Assembly: GCF_001598795.1 (NCBI RefSeq)
Contig: NZ_BCZP01000005.1
Coordinates: 1-32,000 of the forward strand
Reading direction: 5' to 3'
Length of the DNA: 32,000 bases
Source: Delftia acidovorans NBRC 14950
Lineage (GTDB): Bacteria; Pseudomonadota; Gammaproteobacteria; Burkholderiales; Burkholderiaceae_C
A program made the translations under genes and the position numbers. Below the pieces are notes generated by a model, which was given only the letters and a program-made list of their open reading frames with translations, searched no databases and was not told the DNA's origin. Shown here one piece after another: positions 535-12,642 of this stretch (position 1 is the first letter of the stretch; the number at the start of each line of letters is the position of its first letter).

Positions 535-763
535 AGCCATGGAGGCCAAGATCGAGGTGCTGACCTATGCTGTTCAGTCCCTATGCTTGCAGCTCGGTGG
601 CCGGCTCACGCGCCAGCAATTTGCTGAGCGTATGGGCGTCCACAGAAACACGCTCAGCAACATGCTTGCAAGGGATCGGTCTATGCCCAGGCCTGGGAAG
701 GATGGGAAGTGGCTGCTCTCAGAGGTGATGGATTGGGAGATCCGGCGCCGGCGCCAGGGGTAG
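521..763 (+). CDS. HTH DNA-binding protein (excisionase/regulator-like, 80 aa)
   Basis: The segment LTRQQFAERMGVHRNTLSNMLARD looks like a helix-turn-helix, and the gene lies next to the integrase. Its 3' end overlaps the integrase 3' end convergently by 83 nt, so one of the two termini may be over-called. Confidence 0.45.
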   Translation: MTPTEAMEAKIEVLTYAVQSLCLQLGGRLTRQQFAERMGVHRNTLSNMLARDRSMPRPGKDGKWLLSEVMDWEIRRRRQG

Positions 764-1778
764 GCGCGTCCAGCCTGTCCGCGATCTGCTCTGCAGTCGG
801 GTTGTAGTAGGTCATGGCCCGCTTCGGGTCAGACCACCCAAACATTTTGCAGAGGTCGAGCAGGTGGAGCTTCTGGGCAATGCGTGTCGCCGCGGTATGC
901 CGCGAATCGTGAAAGGTGAAACCAGACAGCCCGGCGCGCTCTCGGCACCGACGAAAGATCACATCCAATGTCCCCTCACCGATGCCGAAGACGAACTCGC
1001 TGTCGTAGCCGCGCATGCTCTCGATGTTCCGGCCGGCAGACTTGCTCAGAGGAACGATGCGGCCCTGGCCCGTCTTGGTCTTTCCTTGGCGCAAGATGCA
1101 GTGCGATGTCCTTACGTCTTCCCAGCGGAGGTTTGCAATCTCGCCTGCACGCATCCCAGTGAGCAACGCATGGATGAAGCAACGGGCAACTACATGCTTT
1201 TTCTGGGTCAATGGCCCACCAGACGACCAGCCCATGGCGCGCAGCATGCATCTCACCTCGAAGTCGGATATGACGCGCTCGCGGTTCATAGGAGCGCTTG
1301 GCCGCTTCACGTCCGCCATCGGGTTACGCTCGATCCAGTGCCACTCTCGGCGCGCCTCTTCCAAGATGGAGCTCAACAGGCCCATCTCGCGGATCACCGT
1401 TCCGTCTTTGACAGCCTTCCTGCGCTCGTTCTTCCAGCCGATCAAGTCTTGCTCATCAAGCTCAGACATCGGCCGGTCACCTGGCCACTTCGGGTGCTTC
1501 ATGAATGCCTCGATTCGAAGCAGCTCCCATCTCCAGCCGCGCTTCAATGGGGAGACTTCCTCCTTGTACCGCAGCACCGCGTCATTGAGGGTCTTGGTCT
1601 CTCCCAGCAGCCGCGCCCCTGCCTTCCCCCCAGCTGCTGCAGCAAGCAACTCAACGCGACGATGCGCCGCCCACTCGTTGCACTCCCGTGCGGTGGGGAA
1701 CGTTGCGGCATCCCTCACCCCCTTCACGTTGATCTGTATTCGGTAGGTGCCGGAGGCAGTTTTCTTGGGCTTCGCCAT
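681..1778 (-). CDS. int: Tyrosine-type site-specific integrase (365 aa)
   Basis: The N-terminal arm-type region is MAKPKKTASGTYRIQINVKG. The catalytic region carries LLTGMRAGEI (Arg), HDSRHTAAT (H-x-x-R) and a terminal MTYYNP Tyr. The tail after ADRLD is low-complexity and may be read-through. Confidence 0.9.
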   Translation of the reverse strand: MAKPKKTASGTYRIQINVKGVRDAATFPTARECNEWAAHRRVELLAAAAGGKAGARLLGETKTLNDAVLRYKEEVSPLKRGWRWELLRIEAFMKHPKWPGDRPMSELDEQDLIGWKNERRKAVKDGTVIREMGLLSSILEEARREWHWIERNPMADVKRPSAPMNRERVISDFEVRCMLRAMGWSSGGPLTQKKHVVARCFIHALLTGMRAGEIANLRWEDVRTSHCILRQGKTKTGQGRIVPLSKSAGRNIESMRGYDSEFVFGIGEGTLDVIFRRCRERAGLSGFTFHDSRHTAATRIAQKLHLLDLCKMFGWSDPKRAMTYYNPTAEQIADRLDAPTPGAGAGSPNPSPLRAATSHPSQAWA

Positions 1779-1982: not shown

Positions 1983-3230
1983 TCATGCTTGTGGCTTCGC
2001 GCCTGCTGCGCGCGCCGCCATCCGCACCGCGAGGGCCGACAGTACGGCGCTACCGCCCGCCAGCAGGATGGACGATGTGTAGCTGCCCGACAGATCGAAC
2101 AGCAGCCCCGCCAGACTGCCCCCTGCCACGGCAGCAATACCGACCGACACGTAGAGCGCACCCAGAATGGCGCCCAGGCTCCGCGTGCCAAACCAGGTGG
2201 CAGCCACGGCCGGATACAGCGCGATGCAGCCGCCATTGACCGCACCGAATGCCAACGCGAATCCCGCCAGGGCCGTGAAGCCATGCGCCATGGACCACAG
2301 CCCGCACAGCAGGGCCAGACTCGCGGTCAGCACCATCAGAAAGCGCAGCGGTCCCATCCTGTCGCCCAGCCGCCCCAGCACCAGACGCCCGAGCACATTG
2401 CCGACGCCGATCAGCCCGATCAGCAGATTGGCCTGCGCGGCAGGCAGCCCCTGCTGACGTGCCAGCGGATTGATGTGGATCAGCGCCAGGAACAGGCCGA
2501 TGGAGCCGAAGAAGATGGCGGCGAAATACCACCAAAAGCGCGCCTGCCGGGCCACTTGCCCCAGGCCTACACCCACCACGCCCTGGCAGGTCTGCCCAGC
2601 AGCCTTGGCGCCGCCGGGTTGGATGCCATCGGGATGCAGGCCCAGCTCCTCGGGCCTGCTGCGCAGGGCGGCTGCGGCAGTCAGGCCGGCCAGTGCGATG
2701 GCTGCGGCATAGACCTGCATGGTCAGTTGCCAGGACAGATGCTCCATGAGTGCGCCGGCCACCACGGGCCCGAGCAGGGTTCCAAGTCCGGTGCCGGCAA
2801 GCGCGATACCCGAAGCCGAACTGCGCCGCAGCACGAACCAGCGCTGAATGGTGGAGACAGCAGGCACGTAGACCAGACCAACTCCCAGCCCGACCAGCGC
2901 ACAGAAGGCCCCCAGGAAAGCCGCCAGCGATGATGTCAGCAGGCTGCTGGCCACAAAGCCCAGCGACAGCAACACAATGCCGGCCGAGGTGACAGTGCGC
3001 ACCGAGCTCCTGTCGCTCCAGGCGCCCGAGAACACGCCGACGGCGTAGTAGATCAGTGCCGTCAATGAAAAGATGGAAGCCGTGGAGAAGCTGCTGGCGC
3101 CGAACTGTGCCTGGATGCTGGCAAAAAACGCCCCGAACGAATAGGCGGCACCAAAAATCAGCGCCAGCAGCACATGGACAGCGCCCACGATGTACCAACC
3201 CCGGAACAGCCTGCCTCGGTCCATATGCAT
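1983..3230 (-). CDS. MFS transporter, oxalate/formate-antiporter-like or monocarboxylate-type (415 aa)
   Basis: About 12 predicted hydrophobic helices with a central hydrophilic loop (RSRPEELGLHPDGIQPGG) and an MFS-style GRLGDR motif. GGAG precedes the ATG at 3230. An alternative ATG lies at 3224. Confidence 0.9.
   Translation of the reverse strand: MHMDRGRLFRGWYIVGAVHVLLALIFGAAYSFGAFFASIQAQFGASSFSTASIFSLTALIYYAVGVFSGAWSDRSSVRTVTSAGIVLLSLGFVASSLLTSSLAAFLGAFCALVGLGVGLVYVPAVSTIQRWFVLRRSSASGIALAGTGLGTLLGPVVAGALMEHLSWQLTMQVYAAAIALAGLTAAAALRSRPEELGLHPDGIQPGGAKAAGQTCQGVVGVGLGQVARQARFWWYFAAIFFGSIGLFLALIHINPLARQQGLPAAQANLLIGLIGVGNVLGRLVLGRLGDRMGPLRFLMVLTASLALLCGLWSMAHGFTALAGFALAFGAVNGGCIALYPAVAATWFGTRSLGAILGALYVSVGIAAVAGGSLAGLLFDLSGSYTSSILLAGGSAVLSALAVRMAARAAGAKPQA
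3135..3224. repeat. Copy A of a 90-bp direct repeat (the 5' end of the MFS gene)
   Basis: Aligns without gaps to 6410-6499. I counted 79 of 90 identical positions by eye. Confidence 0.85.
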
Positions 3231-3947
3231 CTCCTTGATAGGGCTGACTGTAGTTGTCTATACATGCTCAGACATTAAGTATCAACCCGGAGATCAGAGG
3301 CAAGCGAGATCACCGGCAATTGCCCGTCAGAGGTCAGGCAAGCTCAACGAGCCGCCTAACCACCAACGGCCGATCGGTGCTTCGCCTGGAGGCGGCGCCT
3401 TCCCTCTGCGCCGGAACCGCGCAGCCTCTCACTTTCAAATTCAGCCCCGAGCAGCCCCCCCTTCCCCTCCTTCAGGCATGCGGGACAGCGCCGGGCGCCG
3501 GACATCTGGAATCTGCAGTCAGTACCTGGTTTCAGCAATATGTCGCGCATATGCATTGAACAGGTTTTCCAACCATTCGCATCAGACGCATATTTTTCTG
3601 TCTTATATTCTTGATTCGCACAATGCTATTGATAACAAGAAATCAATCAATCACCAAAAACCAACAGCAGCATGTTCAATCGACATAATCAACGACTATT
3701 GCAAATGAATTATCAAGAATCATGAAAAATATAAGCATTTACTGATGATCACCAAAAACACATCTCTTGTCCGTCTTCCTCCTCTGAAGAAGAAAATAAA
3801 TGACCAATGAAAGCACTTGAATCCGGTCACACAACGAAAAACCGCCTCAGCAATTTCTTCTTGAAAACTTCTTACAATCCATCGATATTCCCGCCTACCT
3901 GATGCGCTCAGCATCCACTCCAGGCCTTTCCTTCCCGTATTGAATCC

Positions 3948-4634
3948 ATGCTGTTTTCCGGCCAGAATCCGCCGCCCGACATACATGACCAACTGTCTTC
4001 CGTTTCAAGGCAAGACCGGGAGATACTCCATGGTCATAAAGCGGTTGCGATATGGTTGACCGGACTTTCGGGGTCCGGCAAATCGACCATCGCCAATGCG
4101 CTGCAGGCGCATCTGCACGCGGCCGGCCGGCGTACCTATGTGCTGGACGGAGACAACATCCGCAGCCGGCTGAACCGCGATCTGGGCTTTTCCGAAGAAG
4201 ACCGGGCGGAGAACATACGCAGGGTCTCGGAGGTCGCCCGGCTTTTCGTGGATGCGGGCACGATCGTGATCGCGGCCTTCATTTCCCCTTTCCGTAGCGA
4301 GCGCGACACTGCCAGGGCCTTGTTCGACAAGGGTGACTTCCTGGAGGTGTTCGTGGATGTTCCCCTGTCCGTTGCCGAGCGGCGGGACCCCAAGGGCCTG
4401 TACAGAAAAGCGCGCCGCGGCGAACTGCGTCAGTTCACCGGAATCGACTCGCCCTATGAACCCCCTGTGGCAGCGGAGCTGACCCTGCGCACGGACCAGC
4501 TCAGCGTGGCCGCATGTGTTTCGCGCCTGCAGGCGTTGCTGCTGCACGGGCAGCCGACTGCGCCGGGCACGCCCATCCAGGGCATGGCGCCGCTGATGAC
4601 CTGCCCCCTGCCACTGGCCAAGGCGCTGCAATGA
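3948..4634 (+). CDS. cysC: Adenylyl-sulfate (APS) kinase (228 aa)
   Basis: Near-canonical CysC sequence: [22 protein letters not shown] (P-loop), [32 protein letters not shown], and RDPKGLYKKAR-like [14 protein letters not shown]. Confidence 0.92.
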
Positions 4635-5266
4635 ATGCCAGGCCCGCCCTGCCCTGCGCGCATGAAGACGCCTGTGCCGGCACGCCCCTGTTTGCGCGGC
4701 TTGATGCCAGGGTTGCGCTGCAGGCGCTGCGCGAGGAGGTGGATGCGCTGCTGTCCTCGCCATGGTGCGACCACGTGAACCACGGCGGCTACGAAGGCGT
4801 ATGGCGTGTGATGCCGCTGCGCTGCCAGCGCCAGCATGTGGCGGCCCACCCCATTCTCCAAAGCTTCTCCATCGAGGAACCCGAGGAGGATTGGGAGGAC
4901 CTGCCCCTGCTGCAGCACTGCCCCGCCATACGCCAGGTGCTGGAGCAACTGCAGTGCCCGCTGCGCTCTGTGCGCCTGATGCAGCTGAAGGCCGGCTCAT
5001 CCATCAAGCCGCATCGCGACCGTGGGCTGGGCCTGGCGCATGGCCAGGCCCGGCTGCATGTACCCGTGCACACACATCCCGATGTGCAGTTCATCGTGGA
5101 AGGCCGCACGATCCCCATGGCCGCAGGGGAGCTCTGGTATTTCAATGCCGATGCCACGCATGAAGTGGTGAACCGGGGCACCCGGGACCGCACCCACCTG
5201 GTCATCGACTGCCTTGCCAACGCCTGGCTGGCAGACAGCATCGGCAAGGGACACGCCCATGCATGA
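4631..5266 (+). CDS. Aspartyl/asparaginyl beta-hydroxylase-family (cupin, Fe/2OG-type) protein (211 aa)
   Basis: Its ATG overlaps the cysC stop codon (ATGA at 4631-4634). IKPHRD and ATHEVVN provide an H-x-D...H metal motif, and LHVPV...F.V.G matches my recollection of the Asp_Arg_Hydrox family. There is no TM segment or signal peptide. Confidence 0.75.
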
Positions 5267-6419
5267 GCTGCAGGCGGCCTTTGCCGAACTGATCGCAAGC
5301 CCCCGGCAGCACACCCTGTTCCAGCAGGCCAGGAGCATGGAGTCGCTACTGGTGCAGCTGCGCCTGCTGTGGTGTCTTCCCGCCTGGAACGATGGTCGCC
5401 TCATGCAGGCGCTGCAGCAGTTGAACCAGGCGGCTGCCGTGCCAACTGCCGCACTGCTGGCCGGTGGCTGGCTGCCACACAGGTATGAGGCACGCACGCG
5501 CAGCATCCTTTGGTGCCTGCCGGACGGCCCTGCCACCGAGCCGTTTCATGACGAGTACATCAGCCGCTGCCTGCAGCGCAGGCTGCTGAACCAGTTCATC
5601 CGGCCGCGCACGCCGCTGGCCGGCCTGTGCGCGGAATCCCTTCCCAGGCCCGGGGGCCATCCGCCTGCCGGCTTCATCTTCCACCTCTCGCGCTGCGGCT
5701 CCACCCTGGTCTCGGGCTGCCTTTCCGAACTGGACGGCACGCTGGTCCTGTCGGAGCCACCTGTATTCACCGAGCTGCTGCTGGACAGCTCACTGGACCG
5801 GGCGCAAAAGCGCGATGGCATTGCCGGCCTGGTGTCGGCCATCACCGTGGCCGTGCCGGGGCGCCGTAACCTGGTGGTCAAGTGGAATGCCTGGGACATT
5901 TTCCAGTGGGAGCTGCTGCACGATCTCTACCCCGAGGTGCCCAGCCTGATGCTGGTCCGCGATCCTGTGGAGATCCTGGCCTCACACCACAAACAGGCCG
6001 GCCGGCACATGTCGGGCGACCCGTCGCTGGCTGGCGCTGGTCCGGTTTTCTGTTCCGGCAGTGGCAGCCAGCCCGTTGTCTCCATGCTCGACCACCGCGT
6101 GCGCGTGCTGCAGGCAATGATGGAGCGGATGCGGGATCTGCACGAAAGCCAGGGCGTTCCTGTGCTGCACTACCGCCAGCTGGATGCCGAAGCCATGGAG
6201 CATATAGCCCGGCGCTTCGACCTGCACGCAGGCGAGGCAGCGCGCCAGCGCATCGCCGCACGCCTTCGCCAGCATGCCAAGGCGCTGGACCAGCGCTTCG
6301 AGCCTGACGGGCGGGACAAGGCGGCCGTCTTTGGCGAAAGCGAACGCCAGGACATCGAAGCGCGCCTGGGCCCGCTGCACGCACAGCTGCTGCGGCGCGC
6401 ACAACCCGTGAACGAATAG
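5259..6419 (+). CDS. Sulfotransferase-like protein with an uncharacterised N-terminal extension of about 135 aa (386 aa)
   Basis: The ATG has AAGGGA upstream and overlaps the preceding stop by 8 nt. FIFHLSRCGSTLVSGCL (5673-5723) resembles the PAPS 5'-phosphosulfate-binding loop of bacterial sulfotransferases (x-S/R-x-G-S/T-T-L). The stop codon TAG (6417-6419) lies inside the MFS-relic repeat. Confidence 0.65.
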   Translation: MHELQAAFAELIASPRQHTLFQQARSMESLLVQLRLLWCLPAWNDGRLMQALQQLNQAAAVPTAALLAGGWLPHRYEARTRSILWCLPDGPATEPFHDEYISRCLQRRLLNQFIRPRTPLAGLCAESLPRPGGHPPAGFIFHLSRCGSTLVSGCLSELDGTLVLSEPPVFTELLLDSSLDRAQKRDGIAGLVSAITVAVPGRRNLVVKWNAWDIFQWELLHDLYPEVPSLMLVRDPVEILASHHKQAGRHMSGDPSLAGAGPVFCSGSGSQPVVSMLDHRVRVLQAMMERMRDLHESQGVPVLHYRQLDAEAMEHIARRFDLHAGEAARQRIAARLRQHAKALDQRFEPDGRDKAAVFGESERQDIEARLGPLHAQLLRRAQPVNE

Positions 6420-6499
6420 GCCGCGCCAAAGATCAGCGCCAGCAGCACATGGACAGCGCCCACGGTGTACCAGCCCCGGAAAAGTCTGTCTCGCCTCAT
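6410..6499 (-). pseudogene. Relic 5' fragment of an MFS transporter gene (copy B of the 90-bp repeat)
   Basis: Encodes MRRDRLFRGWYTVGAVHVLLALIFGAAYSF, versus MDRGRLFRGWYIVGAVHVLLALIFGAAYSF in the intact gene. It keeps GAGGAGG plus the ATG. Homology stops abruptly at 6410, where the sulfotransferase 3' end abuts. Confidence 0.8.
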
Positions 6500-6842
6500 G
6501 TACACCTCCTCGGTGTGCTCACCCGCCCGCCCTGTGCCCCACATTTGGCAGCGCGTGGCTTTCTGGAGCTTCATTGCAATCTTGGCGTGCGCCACAGGCA
6601 CCATTTCCGTGGCACATCCGGCTGCCACGGCACTCACCGTCACTGCATTGGTCAGTTGCGGAGCATGGTCGAAAAACCGCGAGAAAAACAGACTGCAGGC
6701 GCTTGCCGCTGCCCACAACGGCGAGTCGATCTGCGGCTTTGCCCGTTCCTTTGATTTGCGCAGCACAGATCCTTTGGTAGTCCGCGCTGTGTATGCACAG
6801 CTTCAGTCTGAAGCGGCACCGCAGGCCACCGCATTTCATTGA
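6498..6842 (+). CDS. Hypothetical small membrane protein (114 aa), doubtful
   Basis: Open frame with one hydrophobic stretch (VAFWSFIAILACATG). Third-position GC is only about 65% by my count, clearly below neighbouring genes. There is no convincing RBS. It may simply be the orphaned promoter/leader of the MFS relic. Confidence 0.2.
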   Translation: MYTSSVCSPARPVPHIWQRVAFWSFIAILACATGTISVAHPAATALTVTALVSCGAWSKNREKNRLQALAAAHNGESICGFARSFDLRSTDPLVVRAVYAQLQSEAAPQATAFH

Positions 6843-6887
6843 CGACAGTGCCTTGCTCAGAGCACGGCACAGACCGCTGCAACGCCC

Positions 6888-7457
6888 TCAGGAAATCACA
6901 TTCCGGATGAACCGCGTCACGCCTTCGTGCAGGTTCACATAGGCGTAGTCCTGGGCGCTGCCGTAGATGGCGTAGTCGCCGGCCTCGATGGTCATGGGAC
7001 CCTCGCTCAGGTCCACCAGCAGGCGGCCTTCGACCACGACGATCATCTCGTGCCAGCCTTCCGGGTCAGGTTCGGCCTGGTAGCGTTCGCCGGGCCCAAG
7101 GGACCAGGACCACAGCTGAGCCTCGCGCGTGGCGGGCACGCTGCCCAGCAGCATGGCCTGGCTTTCGGGCCGGGTGCCGCGCCAGGCCATGGCGTCCATG
7201 CGCAGGCGCTGCGCGGCCGGGTCGCTGACGATTTCTATGAAGCTGGCGCCCAGCGCGTCGGCCAGCCGATCCAGGCTGGACAGGCTGATGTTGGTGTCGC
7301 CGCCTTCCAGCTGCACGACCATGCGCCGGCTCAGGCCTGCGGCCTCGGCCAGGGCCGCCTGGCTCAGTCCTGCACGCTGGCGAAGGCGGCGCAGGTTTTC
7401 GCTGACGAAAGCCAGGACATCGGAGCGCTCGCCAGCGCTGTGCAATATATTTCTCAT
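6888..7457 (-). CDS. XRE-family HTH transcriptional regulator with a C-terminal cupin domain (189 aa)
   Basis: The HTH is LRRLRQRAGLSQAALAEAAGLSRRMVVQLEGG. The cupin-like C-terminus is HEMIVVVEGRLLV...GDYAIY. The start was chosen at ATG 7457. An upstream ATG at 7487 would overlap the divergent gene. Confidence 0.85.
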   Translation of the reverse strand: MRNILHSAGERSDVLAFVSENLRRLRQRAGLSQAALAEAAGLSRRMVVQLEGGDTNISLSSLDRLADALGASFIEIVSDPAAQRLRMDAMAWRGTRPESQAMLLGSVPATREAQLWSWSLGPGERYQAEPDPEGWHEMIVVVEGRLLVDLSEGPMTIEAGDYAIYGSAQDYAYVNLHEGVTRFIRNVIS

Positions 7458-7471
7458 ATGATCTGCGCAAT

Positions 7472-8374
7472 ATGTTGCACACGTCATCTTCTCACAGTTC
7501 GCGCACGCCGCTGCTCAGCCGGCAGGAGCTGGCCTTGATCGCCGTCACCATGGTCTGGGGCGGCACCTTTCTCGTGGTCCACCTGGCAATGCAGCACAGC
7601 GGGCCGCTGTTCTTTGTGGGCCTGCGCTTTGTCACGGCGGGTTTGATCGGGCTGCTGGTGTTTCGCAAGGCCATGGCCGGGCTCACGCGCACCGAGCTGG
7701 TGGCAGGCATCGCCATCGGCGCCAGCATCTTCCTGGGCTATGGTCTGCAGACCTTCGGGCTGCAGACCATCAGCAGCAGCAAGTCGGCGTTTCTGACGGC
7801 GTTGTATGTGCCGCTGGTGCCTCTTGTGCAATGGCTGGTGATGGGCAAGCCGCCGCGACTGATGAGCTGGATAGGCATTGGCCTGGCCTTCACGGGCCTG
7901 ATGCTGGTGGCGGGACCGGAGTCCGGCGGCATGGAGTTGAACGTGGGCGAGATGGCAACCATGCTGAGCACGCTGGCCATTGCGGCCGAGGTGCTGCTGA
8001 TCGGGCATTTCGCGGGCAAGGTCGATGCGCGGCGCGTGACCACGGTGCAGTTGCTGGCGGCCGGCGTCATGGCGCTGCTGGCCATGCCGGTGGCGGGCGA
8101 ATCCGTGCCCGACTTCTCATGGGTCTGGCTGTCCGCCGCGGTGGCCATGGCCTGCGCCAGCATCCTGATCCAGCTGACCATGAACTGGGCCCAGAAGTCC
8201 CTGTCGCCCACGCGTGCGACCGTGATCTATGCCAGCGAGCCGGTCTGGGCCGGCATCGTGGGACGCATGGCCGGCGACCGGCTGCCGGGGCTGGCAATTC
8301 TGGGGGCCGCGCTGATCGTGGGCGGGGTGCTGGTCAGCGAGCTGCGCCTGGGCAGGCAAACACCCAAGCCGTAA
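7472..8374 (+). CDS. EamA/DMT-superfamily transporter (300 aa)
   Basis: Ten hydrophobic segments arranged as two EamA-like halves. The N-terminal motif is ALIAVTMVWGGTFLVV. It is divergent from the XRE-cupin regulator. Confidence 0.88.
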   Translation: MLHTSSSHSSRTPLLSRQELALIAVTMVWGGTFLVVHLAMQHSGPLFFVGLRFVTAGLIGLLVFRKAMAGLTRTELVAGIAIGASIFLGYGLQTFGLQTISSSKSAFLTALYVPLVPLVQWLVMGKPPRLMSWIGIGLAFTGLMLVAGPESGGMELNVGEMATMLSTLAIAAEVLLIGHFAGKVDARRVTTVQLLAAGVMALLAMPVAGESVPDFSWVWLSAAVAMACASILIQLTMNWAQKSLSPTRATVIYASEPVWAGIVGRMAGDRLPGLAILGAALIVGGVLVSELRLGRQTPKP

Positions 8375-8747: not shown

Positions 8748-10808
8748 ATGCAAAAGCGTGGCGCGGGAAATCGACGGAAATTGGCCGGCTTTACGGCGGC
8801 AATGGCAGTCAGCTGCACAATCGTTTTGGGGACGGGTGGCACCGCATGGGCCGCCTCGGCAGGGCAAGGTCGCGGCTATGCGCTGGAAGTGAAGGCCGGC
8901 GTTTCATTGGTAGGCATCGGGCTGGATATCCCGCTGGTAGATACCGGACTGCAAAGTGCGCCGCCGGCGTTCAATGTCTCCGGGAAAATGCTTGCTGCAG
9001 ACATCGGGGGCGCCACCGACAGCTTGATTTCATTGAAGGCGGGTGTGCTCTCGGCAAGCACCGGGAGCTCGCTGGCGCAAAACCGCGTCGAAACAACCGC
9101 AGGCATCAGTGACATCAACCTGTCCATCGCTAGCGTCGTGGCCATCAAGGCTGATGTGCTGCAGTCCCAAGTGCAGGCAACCTGCGTCAATGGCGCCGTC
9201 CAGCCCACCGGGGCCGCGACCATCGAGAACCTGAGCATCTCCGTGCTCGGTATCCCTGTCCCAATTCCACTGAATCCATCCCCCAATACCGGACTGAATA
9301 CCGGAATCCTGGAAATCGTTTTCAATGAGCAAACTCCCGTGGATGGGGGAATGGAAGTCAATGCCCTGCGCATTGGCGCGAAAATACCCACCCTCGCCGA
9401 CGTCAACCTCGTCTTGGGCCATTCGCAAGCCTCGCTTGCCGACTGCACCGCAGCGCAAGGGGATACCACGCCACCTGCGGTAGACATCACCACGTCCCCG
9501 GTGATCAATGCAGACAACCAGGAGGCCTACATCGTCGCAGGCAGTTGCACCGCGGGCGATGGCAATGTGAAGGTGACCATCGGCACGGCCCCGAAGTTCG
9601 TGACCATGACGACGGCCTGCAATGCAGCCGGAGCCTGGACGGCACCCGCTGCCAATGTGGCCAGCCTGCCCCTGGGTCCGGTGGACATCACGGCCACCCA
9701 GACCGATGCGGCCGGCAACACCGGCACGCGAAGTGTCATCACCACCAAGACCACGGCCGCAGCCACGGACACGACGGCACCCGTGGTCGCGGTGGACAAC
9801 GCAGCCGCGATAAATGCCGGCAATGAGCACAGCTACACCGTCTCGGGCACCTGCACGGCCGGCGATGGCGATGTCAGGGTGCGCATCGGCACGGCGCCCA
9901 ACTCCGTGGAAGCCATCGCAGCGTGCGGCAGCAACAGCCAATGGACCACTGCCGCCACCGACCTGGGCGGGCTGCCTGCGGGCACGGTGCCCATCCAGGC
10001 CAGCCAGACCGATGCGGCGGGCAATACAGGGACCGCCAATGTCTCCGTCACCAAGGCAGACACCACGCCGCCTGTGGTCACAGTGGGCACCGCGCCCCAG
10101 ATCAATGCCGGCAACCAGGGCGCCTACATCCTCTCTGGCACCTGCACAGTCGGCGCAGGCAGCGTTACGGTGACCATAGGCACGGCGCCCAACGCGGTGG
10201 TGGCCACTGCGCCCTGCGACAGCAATGGCCATTGGACCACCCCCGCCACCGATGTGAGCGCACTGCCTGCGGGTACGGTGGACATCCACGTGGCTCAGAC
10301 CAATGCCGCCGGCAATTCGGGCACGGCCGATGCCACGGTCACCAAGGTCGATACCACGCCGCCCACCACGCCCTCGGTCACAGTGGTGAATCCTCCCCCG
10401 ATAGACGCGGGCAACCAGGGCGGCTACATCCTCTCTGGCACCTGCACGGCCGGCGGTGGCAGCGTGACGGTGACCATCGGCACGGCACCCAAGGCCGTGG
10501 TGGTGACCGTGCCCTGCGATGGCAATGGCCACTGGACCACTCCTGCCATAGACGTGAGCGGCCTGCCCAAGGGATCGGTGACCATCACGGTCACCCAGAC
10601 CCAGGCGACGGGCGATGTCGACTCAAGCACTGCGACCACCACCAAGACCACGCCTGGCGCGGGCGATGCCCCAGGCAGCGACTCCGTCGCAGCCATCCCC
10701 GTGGGCGGGGCCTGGGCATCCCTGCTCCTGCTGGGCGCGGCGGCGCTGGGACTGCGCCGCCGTGGCAGGCAGCCGGGCCCGCAGCGCTCCGGGCGGCACC
10801 ACGATTGA
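8748..10808 (+). CDS. Secreted or cell-surface repeat protein: signal peptide, uncharacterised N-terminal domain, four Ig-like repeats, IPTL/PEP-CTERM-like sorting signal (686 aa)
   Basis: The signal peptide ends at ...GTGGTAWA/AS. Four repeats of about 97-102 aa each contain GxCTAG.G.V.V.IGTAP...C...G.W and Q-T-D/N-AAGN-x-GT, which is adhesin Ig-like style. The C-terminus has AIPVGG, then the hydrophobic AWASLLLLGAAALGL, then RRRGR. Confidence 0.85.
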   Translation: MQKRGAGNRRKLAGFTAAMAVSCTIVLGTGGTAWAASAGQGRGYALEVKAGVSLVGIGLDIPLVDTGLQSAPPAFNVSGKMLAADIGGATDSLISLKAGVLSASTGSSLAQNRVETTAGISDINLSIASVVAIKADVLQSQVQATCVNGAVQPTGAATIENLSISVLGIPVPIPLNPSPNTGLNTGILEIVFNEQTPVDGGMEVNALRIGAKIPTLADVNLVLGHSQASLADCTAAQGDTTPPAVDITTSPVINADNQEAYIVAGSCTAGDGNVKVTIGTAPKFVTMTTACNAAGAWTAPAANVASLPLGPVDITATQTDAAGNTGTRSVITTKTTAAATDTTAPVVAVDNAAAINAGNEHSYTVSGTCTAGDGDVRVRIGTAPNSVEAIAACGSNSQWTTAATDLGGLPAGTVPIQASQTDAAGNTGTANVSVTKADTTPPVVTVGTAPQINAGNQGAYILSGTCTVGAGSVTVTIGTAPNAVVATAPCDSNGHWTTPATDVSALPAGTVDIHVAQTNAAGNSGTADATVTKVDTTPPTTPSVTVVNPPPIDAGNQGGYILSGTCTAGGGSVTVTIGTAPKAVVVTVPCDGNGHWTTPAIDVSGLPKGSVTITVTQTQATGDVDSSTATTTKTTPGAGDAPGSDSVAAIPVGGAWASLLLLGAAALGLRRRGRQPGPQRSGRHHD
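9465..10655 (+). repeat. Four in-frame tandem coding repeats (306, 291, 291 and about 300 bp)
   Basis: Repeat units start at 9465, 9771, 10062 and 10353, each opening with ACC ACG (C/G)C(A/G) CC(T/C), encoding T-T-P/A-P. Units 2 to 4 are clearly similar at the DNA level. Confidence 0.85.
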
Positions 10809-10990: not shown

Positions 10991-11722
10991 ATGAGACCTG
11001 TCGCCATCCTCCAGCACGAATCCGCCCAGGGCCCCGGCGTTCTGCGTGAACACCTGGAGCAACAGTGCATTCCCTACCGACTGTTGCAGCCTGCCCTCGA
11101 TGGCACAGCCCCTGTGCACGCCGCCGACTACAGCGGCATCGTGGTGCTGGGCAGCAACCACAGCGTGAACGAGGGCCTGCCGTGGATGGAGGATGAACAG
11201 GCCCTGCTGACCGATGCGCTGCGCAGCGACATCCCCGTGCTCGGCCACTGCTTTGGCGCACAGATGCTGGCGCGCGCCATGGGCGCCAGGGTCTGGCGCA
11301 ACCCCTGCCCCAACATTGGCTGGAGCCGCATCTGGGTGACGGCCGCCGCCCAGCAGGTCATGGACCTGCCGCGCGAGGCGACGATCTTCCATTGGCACTA
11401 CGACACCTTCGAGATCCCGCGCGGGGCCGTGCGCACCATGTACGGCAGCCACTGCCTGAACAAGGGCTTTCGCCACGGCCGGCACTGGGCCTTCCAGGGC
11501 CACATGGAAGTGACCGCCGCCAGCGTGGCTGCCTGGTGCACCGAAGGCCATGACGAGCTGCTGCGCGCACGCGGCCCCGCGGCGCAGACCGAGAGCGAGA
11601 TCCTGCGCCACCTGGACCTGCGCATTCCCGTGTTGAACGCCCTGGCCCACCGGACCTACCGGGCCTGGACGGCACAGTTGCAGCGGCCGGTGGTCGTGAA
11701 CCTGGGCGTGGCCAGCCGATAG
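10991..11722 (+). CDS. Class-I glutamine amidotransferase-like protein (243 aa)
   Basis: VLGHCFGAQMLARAMG is the nucleophile-elbow Cys motif. H-x-E-type residues follow downstream (FQGHMEV). Confidence 0.8.
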   Translation: MRPVAILQHESAQGPGVLREHLEQQCIPYRLLQPALDGTAPVHAADYSGIVVLGSNHSVNEGLPWMEDEQALLTDALRSDIPVLGHCFGAQMLARAMGARVWRNPCPNIGWSRIWVTAAAQQVMDLPREATIFHWHYDTFEIPRGAVRTMYGSHCLNKGFRHGRHWAFQGHMEVTAASVAAWCTEGHDELLRARGPAAQTESEILRHLDLRIPVLNALAHRTYRAWTAQLQRPVVVNLGVASR

Positions 11723-11789
11723 CCCTCCCCGAAGCGGACGCCCCGGTGAATACCCGGGGAGCGCTTGACGTGGCGTTTGCACGCAGGGA

Positions 11790-11827
11790 AACTTTCGATA
11801 CGAAATAAAAAACTTTCTAATCGAAAG
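11790..11827. promoter_or_regulatory. Candidate DeoR-type operator
   Basis: The inverted repeat is CTTTCGAT (11792-11799) and ATCGAAAG (11820-11827). The direct repeat AACTTTC occurs at 11790 and 11811, 21 bp apart. The site ends 5 bp upstream of the DeoR start codon. Confidence 0.35.
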
Positions 11828-11832
11828 AATCC

Positions 11833-12642
11833 ATGCAGGAACAAGGCAACAGTTCACTCAAGCGCAGGCTGCAGATCGTGGAGCTGGCGCGCAAGACCGA
11901 CGAGGTGCGGGTCGAAGCGCTGAGCGTGCTCTTCGGCGTCTCCACCGTCACCATCCGCAACGACCTGCACTACCTGGAACAGCAGGGCTATGTGGTGCGC
12001 GCCTTCGGCAAGGCGCGCTACAACCCGGCCCTGCTCAAGACGGCCGCAGAGATACCTGGCGCCCCTGCCGCCGCGCAAGGCCCGGCGCAGGCCCAGGTGG
12101 CCCAGGGCGCGCTGGGCTGGATCGAGGACGACGCCTCGGTCTTCCTGGGCAGCGGCCGCATCACCCACCGCGTGCTGCCACTGCTGGCCAGCCGCCAGGG
12201 CATTGCGCTGACGCTGCACGACCTGGCCATGGTGGCGACGGCGCGGCAGTTTCTCGATTGCGCCATCCACGTCACGGGCGGCGCGCTGGCCGGCGACGAG
12301 CCCGGCCTCATCGGCCCCGGGGCAGAAGCGGGTCTGCGGGCCCGGCCGCTGGACATCTGCCTGTTCGAGATCTGCGGCATCGACGACCGCAACCGCCTGC
12401 TGTGCCGCGACCCGGGCGCGGCTCGCCTGTATTCGGCAGCCGTGGAGCACAGCACCAAGGCCGTGGCGCTGGCCCTGGACCTGGACAGCACCACGAGCGG
12501 GCATCCGGTCTGCGACATCGCCCAGATCGACGGCCTGTGCGCCCACCAGGACATGGAGCCGGGCGCCTTCGATCTGCTGGCGCACCACCGGCTGCAGGCC
12601 ACCCGCAAGGCCGAGGGCCGCATCGAATTCGCCAGAACCTGA
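11833..12642 (+). CDS. DeoR/GlpR-family transcriptional regulator (269 aa)
   Basis: The N-terminal HTH is RRLQIVELARKTDEVRVEALSVLFGVSTVTIRNDLHYLEQQGYVVR, followed by a C-terminal sugar-phosphate sensor-like domain. Confidence 0.88.
   Translation: MQEQGNSSLKRRLQIVELARKTDEVRVEALSVLFGVSTVTIRNDLHYLEQQGYVVRAFGKARYNPALLKTAAEIPGAPAAAQGPAQAQVAQGALGWIEDDASVFLGSGRITHRVLPLLASRQGIALTLHDLAMVATARQFLDCAIHVTGGALAGDEPGLIGPGAEAGLRARPLDICLFEICGIDDRNRLLCRDPGAARLYSAAVEHSTKAVALALDLDSTTSGHPVCDIAQIDGLCAHQDMEPGAFDLLAHHRLQATRKAEGRIEFART

Follow-up and report, generated by a model that had tools for sequence, protein, structure and literature searches.

In Delftia acidovorans NBRC 14950, genes for an adenylyl-sulfate (APS) kinase, a 2-oxoglutarate (2OG)/Fe(II) oxygenase and a sulfotransferase-fold protein (cysC, hyd and ORF3) overlap one another. 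What do these tailoring genes modify, when no substrate gene lies beside them? The window analysed here is a 32,000-nucleotide (nt) stretch, positions 1–32,000 of the forward strand of contig NZ_BCZP01000005.1 (RefSeq assembly GCF_001598795.1). The original prediction, made from its letters alone, described the trio as a stand-alone orphan operon that supplies 3'-phosphoadenosine 5'-phosphosulfate (PAPS) and hydroxylates and sulfates a pre-existing molecule. Its orphan status proved to be secondary. hyd and ORF3 are the core of a conserved larger cluster, and the window holds a truncated haplotype of this widespread, uncharacterised cluster from which the downstream genes are missing.

A translationally coupled trio

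The cassette consists of the following genes, with protein lengths in amino acids (aa).

3948–4634, forward strand: cysC, adenylyl-sulfate (APS) kinase, the PAPS maker, 228 aa
4631–5266, forward strand: hyd (ORF2), 2OG/Fe(II) oxygenase of the Asp_Arg_Hydrox cupin family, 211 aa
5259–6419, forward strand: ORF3, sulfotransferase-fold protein, 386 aa; the final two codons and the stop derive from a deletion junction

The trio is a single translationally coupled cassette. Read directly in the DNA, cysC and hyd overlap by ATGA at 4631–4634 (cysC stop TGA at 4632–4634, hyd ATG at 4631–4633), and hyd and ORF3 share the 8 nt ATGCATGA at 5259–5266 (ORF3 ATG at 5259–5261, hyd stop at 5264–5266). The tight coupling of the three open reading frames (ORFs) had been predicted at these positions, and both overlaps were exact. 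The program-made ORF list contains longer versions of hyd and ORF3, with starts at 4514 and 5214. The starts at 4631 (MNAR...) and 5259 (MHEL...) are favoured because homologues begin at MNAR... and MHEL... in the alignments. The cysC start at 3948 agrees with that of the Delftia orthologue (MPFSGHTPPPD). A promoter scan gave a weak promoter-like site upstream of cysC (3861–3889), and a terminator scan gave no convincing terminator 3' of ORF3.

Identity of the three proteins

The motifs on which the assignments had been based (the CysC motif, ...ATHEVVN in Hyd and FHLSRCGSTL in ORF3) were all found in the translations. CysC matched PF01583 (E 1.6e-68, 230 bits, cutoff 21.1) and TIGR00455 (269.1 bits, cutoff 138.7) well above the cutoffs, and its translation contains the P-loop GxxGxGKS/T and the LDGDxxR and FISPF substrate-binding motifs, as expected of the APS kinase that had been predicted. 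The further idea of a dedicated PAPS supply fits both the translational coupling of cysC and its recurrence beside homologous hyd–ORF3 pairs, which was seen in Comamonadaceae and several Cellvibrio (12 of 56 species-level loci). Within the coupled trio, cysC is co-oriented with and overlaps its neighbour, the kinase–sulfotransferase linkage characteristic of PAPS-supply cassettes. A linked ATP sulfurylase (CysD/CysN-type) was seen neither around the trio in the window nor in the gene tables for homologous clusters.

Hyd scored 73 bits against PF05118 (E 3.2e-20, cutoff 22.6), and its residues H128, D130, H177 and R187 were invariant in an alignment of 19 homologues. The top Foldseek matches of its AlphaFold2 model (predicted local distance difference test, pLDDT, 85.7) were 2OG oxygenases with a double-stranded beta-helix. 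Family score, invariant triad and model thus bear out a His-x-Asp...His 2OG/Fe(II) cupin of the Asp_Arg_Hydrox family. The best structural match was L-proline cis-4-hydroxylase (E 1.9e-11, TMq 0.70; sequence E 4e-5), followed by a hydroxylase of a nucleoside-antibiotic pathway, proline 3-hydroxylase and then human AspH (E 1.9e-8).

ORF3 was more difficult to place. The whole protein had no Pfam match, matched the NCBIfam model NoeE weakly (E 2e-4) and reached the threshold of neither of the curated sulfotransferase profiles (Sulfotransfer_1/Sulfotransfer_3). Its C-terminal domain scored below threshold against PF13469 (15.7 bits, cutoff 27), and the homologue P0053 reached 26.7 bits. A profile of ORF3 gave zero matches among PDB sequences. 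The AlphaFold2 model (pLDDT 87.8, predicted template modelling score, pTM, 0.87) retrieved only sulfotransferases from the PDB at Foldseek ranks 1–31 (best E 6.2e-4), in the order tick and human tyrosylprotein sulfotransferases (TPSTs), 3rnl, Stf9, Stf1 and the CurM sulfotransferase domain. The TM-scores of these matches were modest (0.35–0.56); for TPSTs they were ~0.35–0.5, with 13–16% sequence identity. They are modest partly because residues 1–135 form an extra domain of no recognisable family.

Two blocks of ORF3, H142-LSRCGSTL-150 and R234-D-P-x5-S242, were invariant among 19 homologues of 42–90% identity. They have the form and spacing of the 5'-phosphosulfate binding (5'-PSB) and 3'-phosphate binding (3'-PB) motifs for PAPS in sulfotransferases. 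An invariant Glu166 sits at +21 from the loop residue Arg145, which equals the Arg-to-Glu spacing in TPST2 (alignment by eye); in TPST2, the glutamate at that spacing is the catalytic base. A sulfotransferase fold with both PAPS motifs had been set beforehand as the check on ORF3, and both were present. From the model and motifs we infer that ORF3 is a sulfotransferase that uses PAPS and has an additional domain at its N-terminus (residues ~1–135).

The family is large. Database relatives of ORF3 numbered 518 at E<=1e-3, and the best 120 of these 518 all had E<=1e-89. At 50% identity the family forms 3,098 clusters with E<=1e-3 and 2,112 with E<=1e-10; a ~330-aa form without the first ~70 residues is common among them. 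It has no Pfam model and no sequence-detectable solved relative, and no characterised member was found. Across dozens of genera, ORF3 is almost always paired with a specific 2OG oxygenase and usually also lies near tail-fibre-like proteins and giant adhesins.

The larger cluster in relatives

In D. lacustris/tsuruhatensis-type genomes, a metagenomic relative (ORF3 90% identity), Acidovorax and a Comamonas metagenome-assembled genome, the full order is cysC, hyd, ORF3, a GNAT gene, three PF07484 collar genes, a gene for a 285-aa Sulfotransfer_1/3 protein and a gene for a giant DUF4347/fn3/IPTL-CTERM protein of 1,370–1,540 aa. The first three of these genes have their orthologues in the trio of the window, with 79–88% DNA identity to other Delftia alleles, the same gene order and the same overlaps, including adjacent, overlapping hyd and ORF3. 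The window differs from the cluster in that it has no GNAT, collar, second sulfotransferase or giant-protein gene, in the rewritten C-terminus of ORF3, and in the position of a major facilitator superfamily (MFS) gene upstream rather than downstream.

Cellvibrio, Shewanella, Rheinheimera, Hahella and Alteromonas have hyd–ORF3 with most of the other elements nearby, usually GNAT and one or three collar genes, in some cases the second sulfotransferase, and a giant protein. In a phmmer survey of 56 species-representative loci with adequate flank (one genome per species), Hyd was found at 53 loci, collar at 44, GNAT at 43, the giant protein at 36 and the second sulfotransferase at 22. A Mem_trans (AEC-family) transporter gene preceded hyd at 14, and cysC was present at 12. 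The loci with collar genes include distant phyla. Every version of the cluster consists of tailoring enzymes and ribosomally made proteins; none contained a scaffold-building enzyme. The tailoring functions are one or two oxygenases, one or two sulfotransferases, a GNAT and a methyltransferase-like domain.

The collar proteins matched the T4 gp12 short tail fibre, the long tail fibre of another phage and PHROG tail-fibre families. The best NCBIfam match of the GNAT was RimI. For the second sulfotransferase (285 aa; 11349–12206 in the Delftia locus L001 and 13370–14227 in L007, a full-cluster Delftia relative used as the comparison reference), the best PDB sequence match was TPST2. Its presence tracked the three-collar architecture (18 of 23 loci, against 8 of 30; Fisher P 2.8e-4, kinship ignored). 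This protein was 75–80% identical between Delftia and Cellvibrio, Shewanella, Rheinheimera, Lysobacter and Pseudoxanthomonas, and was thus far more conserved than its neighbours (ORF3 ~45%, Hyd ~57%). It also matched phrog_27463, a phage family of unknown function (E 1.4e-42).

Two variants depart from this plan. In Shewanella and Hahella, a fusion of ~700 aa (methyltransferase-like/PhyH oxygenase) is encoded between hyd and ORF3 (L067 7947–9992; L075 7869–9983). In Arenimonas (L106 9040–13406), hyd–ORF3 lies between two alpha/beta-hydrolase genes, downstream of a Peptidase_M1/leukotriene-A4-hydrolase-like gene; GNAT, collar and cysC genes are all lacking. The locus is a second natural minimal pair: hyd–ORF3 was kept without its GNAT and collar partners only in Arenimonas and in the present D. 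acidovorans lineage.

The original prediction had allowed that homologous trios might already belong to a characterised product pathway. They belong to the larger cluster instead, and searches of the available literature library on its protein families and on Delftia sulfotransferase found no description of it. A phage origin was considered and rejected: of 2.9 million IMG/VR contigs, two carried ORF3 relatives, and both held the bacterial cluster (prophage-adjacent or mis-called viral). Searches with PADLOC-DB defence models gave only a P-loop-level match to CysC (E 6.6e-4) and no membership for the cluster proteins. In an expression table for Acaryochloris marina (PMC11633204), an acetyltransferase, conserved hypotheticals and three phage-tail-collar genes (AM1_3684–3690) rank among the genes most strongly regulated by light, all in the same direction. 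These genes may be a cyanobacterial version of the GNAT/collar module.

Truncation in this lineage

A phmmer search of all ORFs in the window with each of the cluster proteins matched CysC, Hyd and ORF3 and nothing else. The reading of the trio as a stand-alone operon is therefore not borne out; hyd–ORF3 has lost its downstream partners here. The absence of an obvious precursor gene, also predicted, holds for the locus in the window, and fails for the clusters of relatives, which contain candidate partner and substrate genes. The features around the break, and the segments of the window aligned with L007, are as follows.

1983–3230, reverse strand: intact MFS_1 transporter gene (PF07690, E 2.3e-43), divergent from cysC
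3236–3947: intergenic spacer between the MFS gene and cysC, GC 0.48; 3852–3947 is conserved upstream of cysC in L007
6410–6517, reverse strand: MFS 5' remnant at the right-hand deletion junction, 30 codons (ATG at 6499–6497) plus 18 nt of leader; 90.7% identical to L096
3135–3235 (left, intact MFS 5' end) and 6410–6510 (right): direct repeat D1, 101 nt, 86% identity, spacing 3275 nt
1914–1981, aligned with L007 7902–7969: region directly after the FBPase gene, 97% (92% to L001, 90% to L097)
1998–3288, aligned with L007 18414–19694: MFS gene and leader, downstream of the cluster in L007, 85%
3852–6411, aligned with L007 8601–11150: upstream region of cysC and the trio, 88%
6410–6517, aligned with L007 19540–19647: first 30 codons and leader of the MFS gene, 92.6%

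The ORF3 homology ends at 6411 and the MFS homology starts at 6410, with the break 29 nt before the ancestral ORF3 stop. After codon 384, ORF3 is fused to the antisense 5' end of the MFS gene, from which its last two codons and TAG derive. The protein accordingly ends in QPVNE, as against HPLMDAEARHAA in full-cluster relatives. The lost tail is unconserved in the family.

At the site of the trio, the chromosome L096, which is also labelled D. acidovorans, has all nine genes of the cluster, with the MFS gene after them. Its flanks are nearly identical to those of the window genome (97.8% on the right, 98.3% on the left), whereas the trio is only 79.4% and the MFS gene 84.9% identical. The intact MFS gene of the window is 85% identical to L007 18414–19694 and to L096 15701–16959; in full-cluster relatives it follows the gene for the giant protein. 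The MFS protein was rejected as a conserved functional partner, its adjacency to the cluster being confined to Delftia.

Among Delftia lineages, DNA identity was 78–89% for the cluster and 96–98% for the PepN and FBPase flanks. This hyper-divergence suggests mosaic recombination or diversifying selection, as at surface-antigen loci. Synonymous divergence (dS) from L007 drops along the trio, from 0.83 in cysC to 0.23 in hyd and 0.14 in ORF3, and mosaic recombination is therefore indicated. No rearrangement in a single event (simple deletion, tandem duplication or circle reintegration) fitted the window: the MFS 5' copies are 83–86% alike and the affinities of the segments differ. The two copies are too different to stem from a recent duplication.

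Within the spacer, 563 nt (3289–3851) had a GC of 0.49, against ~0.66 around it, and were present only in contigs with the truncated haplotype. This segment had no match in full-cluster relatives and no Rfam match. An Rfam scan of 3100–7000 returned only a chance-level match, at 6688–6751 (E 0.12).

Maintenance of the truncated allele

The truncated allele occurs in many D. acidovorans genomes. The ORF3 protein (WP_034392490.1) is identical in D. acidovorans GCA_000741825.1 and GCA_002443055.1, where it has the same neighbours as in the window, and 138 sequences belong to its cluster at 90% identity. The 14 full-length variants that were read in this cluster were all 386 aa long, ended in QPV[N/D/H]E and showed no truncation; among their 35 variable positions, one touched a family-invariant column. 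An independent allele, L095, has the junction too. Between the two junction-bearing alleles, ORF3 had 13 synonymous and 14 non-synonymous differences, where ~7 and 20 were expected under neutrality (binomial P 0.0095). The resulting ratio of non-synonymous to synonymous divergence (dN/dS), 0.36, is the same as against full-cluster alleles. Because of this ratio, and because the intact variants avoid invariant columns, purifying selection appears to have persisted after the downstream genes were lost. The best 120 matches of the second sulfotransferase included no other Delftia cluster, and the lengths of the contigs in its own cluster did not correspond to genomes with the truncated allele; indirectly, this suggests that the protein is absent from those genomes.

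Proposed function and alternatives

On balance we favour the following reading. The trio is the conserved front end of a larger cluster, it is still maintained although the rest has been lost here, and in the complete system the collar and giant proteins are the most likely substrates. CysC would phosphorylate APS to PAPS, Hyd would hydroxylate the substrate by its 2OG/Fe(II) chemistry, and ORF3 would sulfate with PAPS, with Hyd and ORF3 acting on a common target. The complete system is predicted to hydroxylate, O-sulfate and acetylate collar and/or giant proteins. In the present lineage, a deletion-type junction has fused ORF3 to the antisense MFS 5' end, and the downstream genes are gone. 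The truncated trio probably still works, either on an unlinked substrate (e.g. tail-fibre-like proteins encoded elsewhere) or on a second substrate.

Two alternatives concern the role of cysC and the effect of the loss of the downstream genes. If cysC were a housekeeping gene, its kinase would feed assimilatory sulfate reduction and its adjacency to the other two genes would be incidental. The ATGA overlap that ties it to hyd, its recurrent linkage to hyd–ORF3 (12 of 56 loci) and its position within a hyper-variable accessory locus make this the least probable of the explanations considered. The trio might instead be a functionless remnant which, after the downstream loss, has merely not yet accumulated disabling mutations. 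Partner genes linked in 44 of 56 species are missing here, the junction rewrote the C-terminus of ORF3, and the locus is a hot spot of rearrangement and prophage insertion, all of which would suit a relic. We nevertheless consider decay improbable in view of the 14 of 14 intact 386-aa variants, the 35 variable positions, of which only one touches an invariant column, and the post-junction dN/dS, which equals that before the junction and departs from neutrality; the tail that was lost is itself unconserved across the family.

Which substrate the maintained genes serve is the more difficult choice. A protein is favoured because the cluster holds only tailoring enzymes and ribosomally made proteins, with no scaffold enzyme, and because both sulfotransferases lean towards TPSTs (ORF3 by structure, the second sulfotransferase by sequence). 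The likeness of the GNAT to RimI and of the collars to tail fibres gives further hints in the same direction. The main rival to a protein target is a small-molecule product. Hyd would then hydroxylate a free amino acid or metabolite, ORF3 would sulfate it and, in complete clusters, the GNAT would N-acetylate it; the product would be an exported signal, osmolyte or ligand, and the collar and giant proteins would be associated with it (e.g. as binders) rather than being substrates. L-proline cis-4-hydroxylase, the nucleoside-antibiotic hydroxylase and proline 3-hydroxylase all outrank AspH as matches of Hyd, the hyd–ORF3 pair endures without collar and GNAT in Arenimonas and in this lineage, a Mem_trans gene stands ahead of hyd at 14 of 56 loci, and an MFS gene adjoins the trio here. 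However, no version of the cluster has a scaffold-forming or amino-acid-activating enzyme, collar genes co-occur in 44 of 56 species, distant phyla included, the MFS adjacency is Delftia-only, and both sulfotransferases score best against protein-tyrosine sulfotransferases. We consider a small-molecule product less likely than a protein target. A lipid target had also been suggested: a sulfated membrane lipid would arise through hydroxylation of its acyl chain or head group by the cupin and sulfation by ORF3. PF05118 does include LpxO and OlsC. Hyd is short (211 aa) with no long hydrophobic stretch seen, its structural neighbours are amino-acid and protein hydroxylases, and no version of the cluster contains an acyltransferase or lipid A gene, so that this suggestion found no support and appears very unlikely.

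Several points weigh against the modification of collar and giant proteins. These linked candidate substrates are absent here; were they the sole substrates, the trio should decay, yet it is intact. The pair likewise persists without collar genes in Arenimonas. The TPST match of ORF3 is only marginally above those of small-molecule sulfotransferases (E 6e-4 vs 1.5e-3; TM ~0.4), and the closest solved relatives of Hyd act on free L-proline or in a nucleoside-antibiotic pathway, which suits a small molecule at least as well as a protein. The survey counts come from phmmer searches with Delftia and Cellvibrio references over stop-to-stop ORFs, and ignore kinship. In its most specific form, the protein reading would make Hyd, ORF3, the GNAT and the second sulfotransferase an unrecognised bacterial protein-modification system for collar trimers resembling tail-fibre tips and/or giant IPTL-CTERM surface proteins, of which D. 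acidovorans would have a minimal version active in trans; this we propose tentatively, as a possibility.

Flanking elements

A tyrosine integrase gene lies at the edge of an integrated element, outside the cassette.

681–1778, reverse strand: tyrosine integrase (PF00589, E 6.9e-19)

A small ORF on the forward strand (521–763, 80 aa, no Pfam match) may encode a DNA-binding protein. Together with the integrase it forms the right edge of the integrated element; ParB-like and DNA methylase genes were found further left (L089). The element abuts the 68-nt segment 1914–1981, which lies just downstream of FBPase in other Delftia. In a sister genome (L090), the element is absent and ~62 nt of the integrase 5' end are retained. 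Phage-like genes of other kinds occupy this point in other strains, and the interval between FBPase and the cluster looks like an integration hot spot. A tRNA attachment site for the integrase was not found, since the window has no tRNA gene.

To the right of the junction, an XRE-HTH/cupin regulator gene (6888–7487, reverse strand) is divergent from an EamA transporter gene (7472–8374, forward strand). Both are native neighbours that are also present in L096, and are unrelated to the cassette. The ORF at 8748–10808 (forward strand) encodes a likely repeat adhesin of 686 aa. It has four Ca_tandemer/Big_13 repeats of ~100 aa each, and at its C-terminus a hydrophobic segment precedes RRRGR. It was rejected as a relic of the giant protein: it is of the Ca_tandemer/Big_13 type, it had no match to the Pfam IPTL-CTERM model, and it also stands beside the complete cluster in L096.

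Elsewhere in the window, the annotated genes are those for a sugar ABC transporter with PfkB and GatZ, a LysR regulator, an ARD-family protein, a molybdopterin oxidoreductase and a cytochrome c. As predicted, the parts of the window that were examined hold no nonribosomal peptide synthetase (NRPS), polyketide synthase (PKS) or glycosyltransferase, and the annotated larger ORFs belong to ordinary metabolism and transport.

Significance and comparison with known systems

If the targets are proteins, the cluster would represent a new route of sulfation and hydroxylation of bacterial surface proteins, with possible bearing on adhesion, phage/host recognition and antigenic variation. Bacterial protein sulfation would then be far commoner than the single RaxST/RaxX example, extending from Comamonadaceae and many Gammaproteobacteria to more distant phyla. 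Genomes labelled D. acidovorans provide natural variants: at one and the same chromosomal position, some have the nine-gene cluster in full and others the truncated trio. For genome scanning, the locus illustrates that tailoring genes which look like an orphan operon can be what remains of a larger cluster.

The same three enzyme classes as in the trio occur together in the cyanotoxin gene sets for cylindrospermopsin (CyrI/CyrJ/CyrN) and saxitoxin (SxtO, SxtN and oxygenases). Those sets sit in PKS/NRPS or amidinotransferase scaffold pathways, whereas no scaffold enzyme is present in the trio or in homologous clusters. In cylindrospermopsin, hydroxylation and sulfation are on different atoms, and therefore a hydroxylate-then-sulfate order is not implied even there.

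Among hydroxylases, Hyd shares the double-stranded beta-helix and the His-x-Asp...His iron triad with L-proline cis-4-hydroxylase (~20% identity), proline 3-hydroxylase and human AspH (~14% identity). Human AspH has a TPR domain, whereas Hyd is shorter and without TPR; in a further contrast with AspH, no EGF-like substrate domain was seen among the cluster proteins.

NodPQ/NodH (Nod-factor sulfation in Sinorhizobium) and RaxPQ/RaxST (tyrosine sulfation of RaxX in Xanthomonas) place APS-kinase activity next to a PAPS-dependent sulfotransferase and in the same transcript, an arrangement that the trio probably shares. NodPQ and RaxPQ also encode ATP sulfurylase (NodP/CysD, NodQ/CysN), whereas the cassette in the window covers the kinase step only, and no RaxX-like peptide gene or nod genes are present. 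In contrast to NodH and RaxST, ORF3 has an extra N-terminal domain of ~135 aa and no sequence match to solved sulfotransferases. The likeness to RaxST lies in structure, the nearest solved structures of ORF3 being tyrosylprotein sulfotransferases. With these best structural matches (human TPST1/2 and tick TPST), ORF3 shares the 5'-PSB loop type xRSG(S/T)T with its arginine and the Arg...Ser pair of the 3'-PB motif; it differs from them as a cytoplasmic bacterial protein with a different N-terminal domain.

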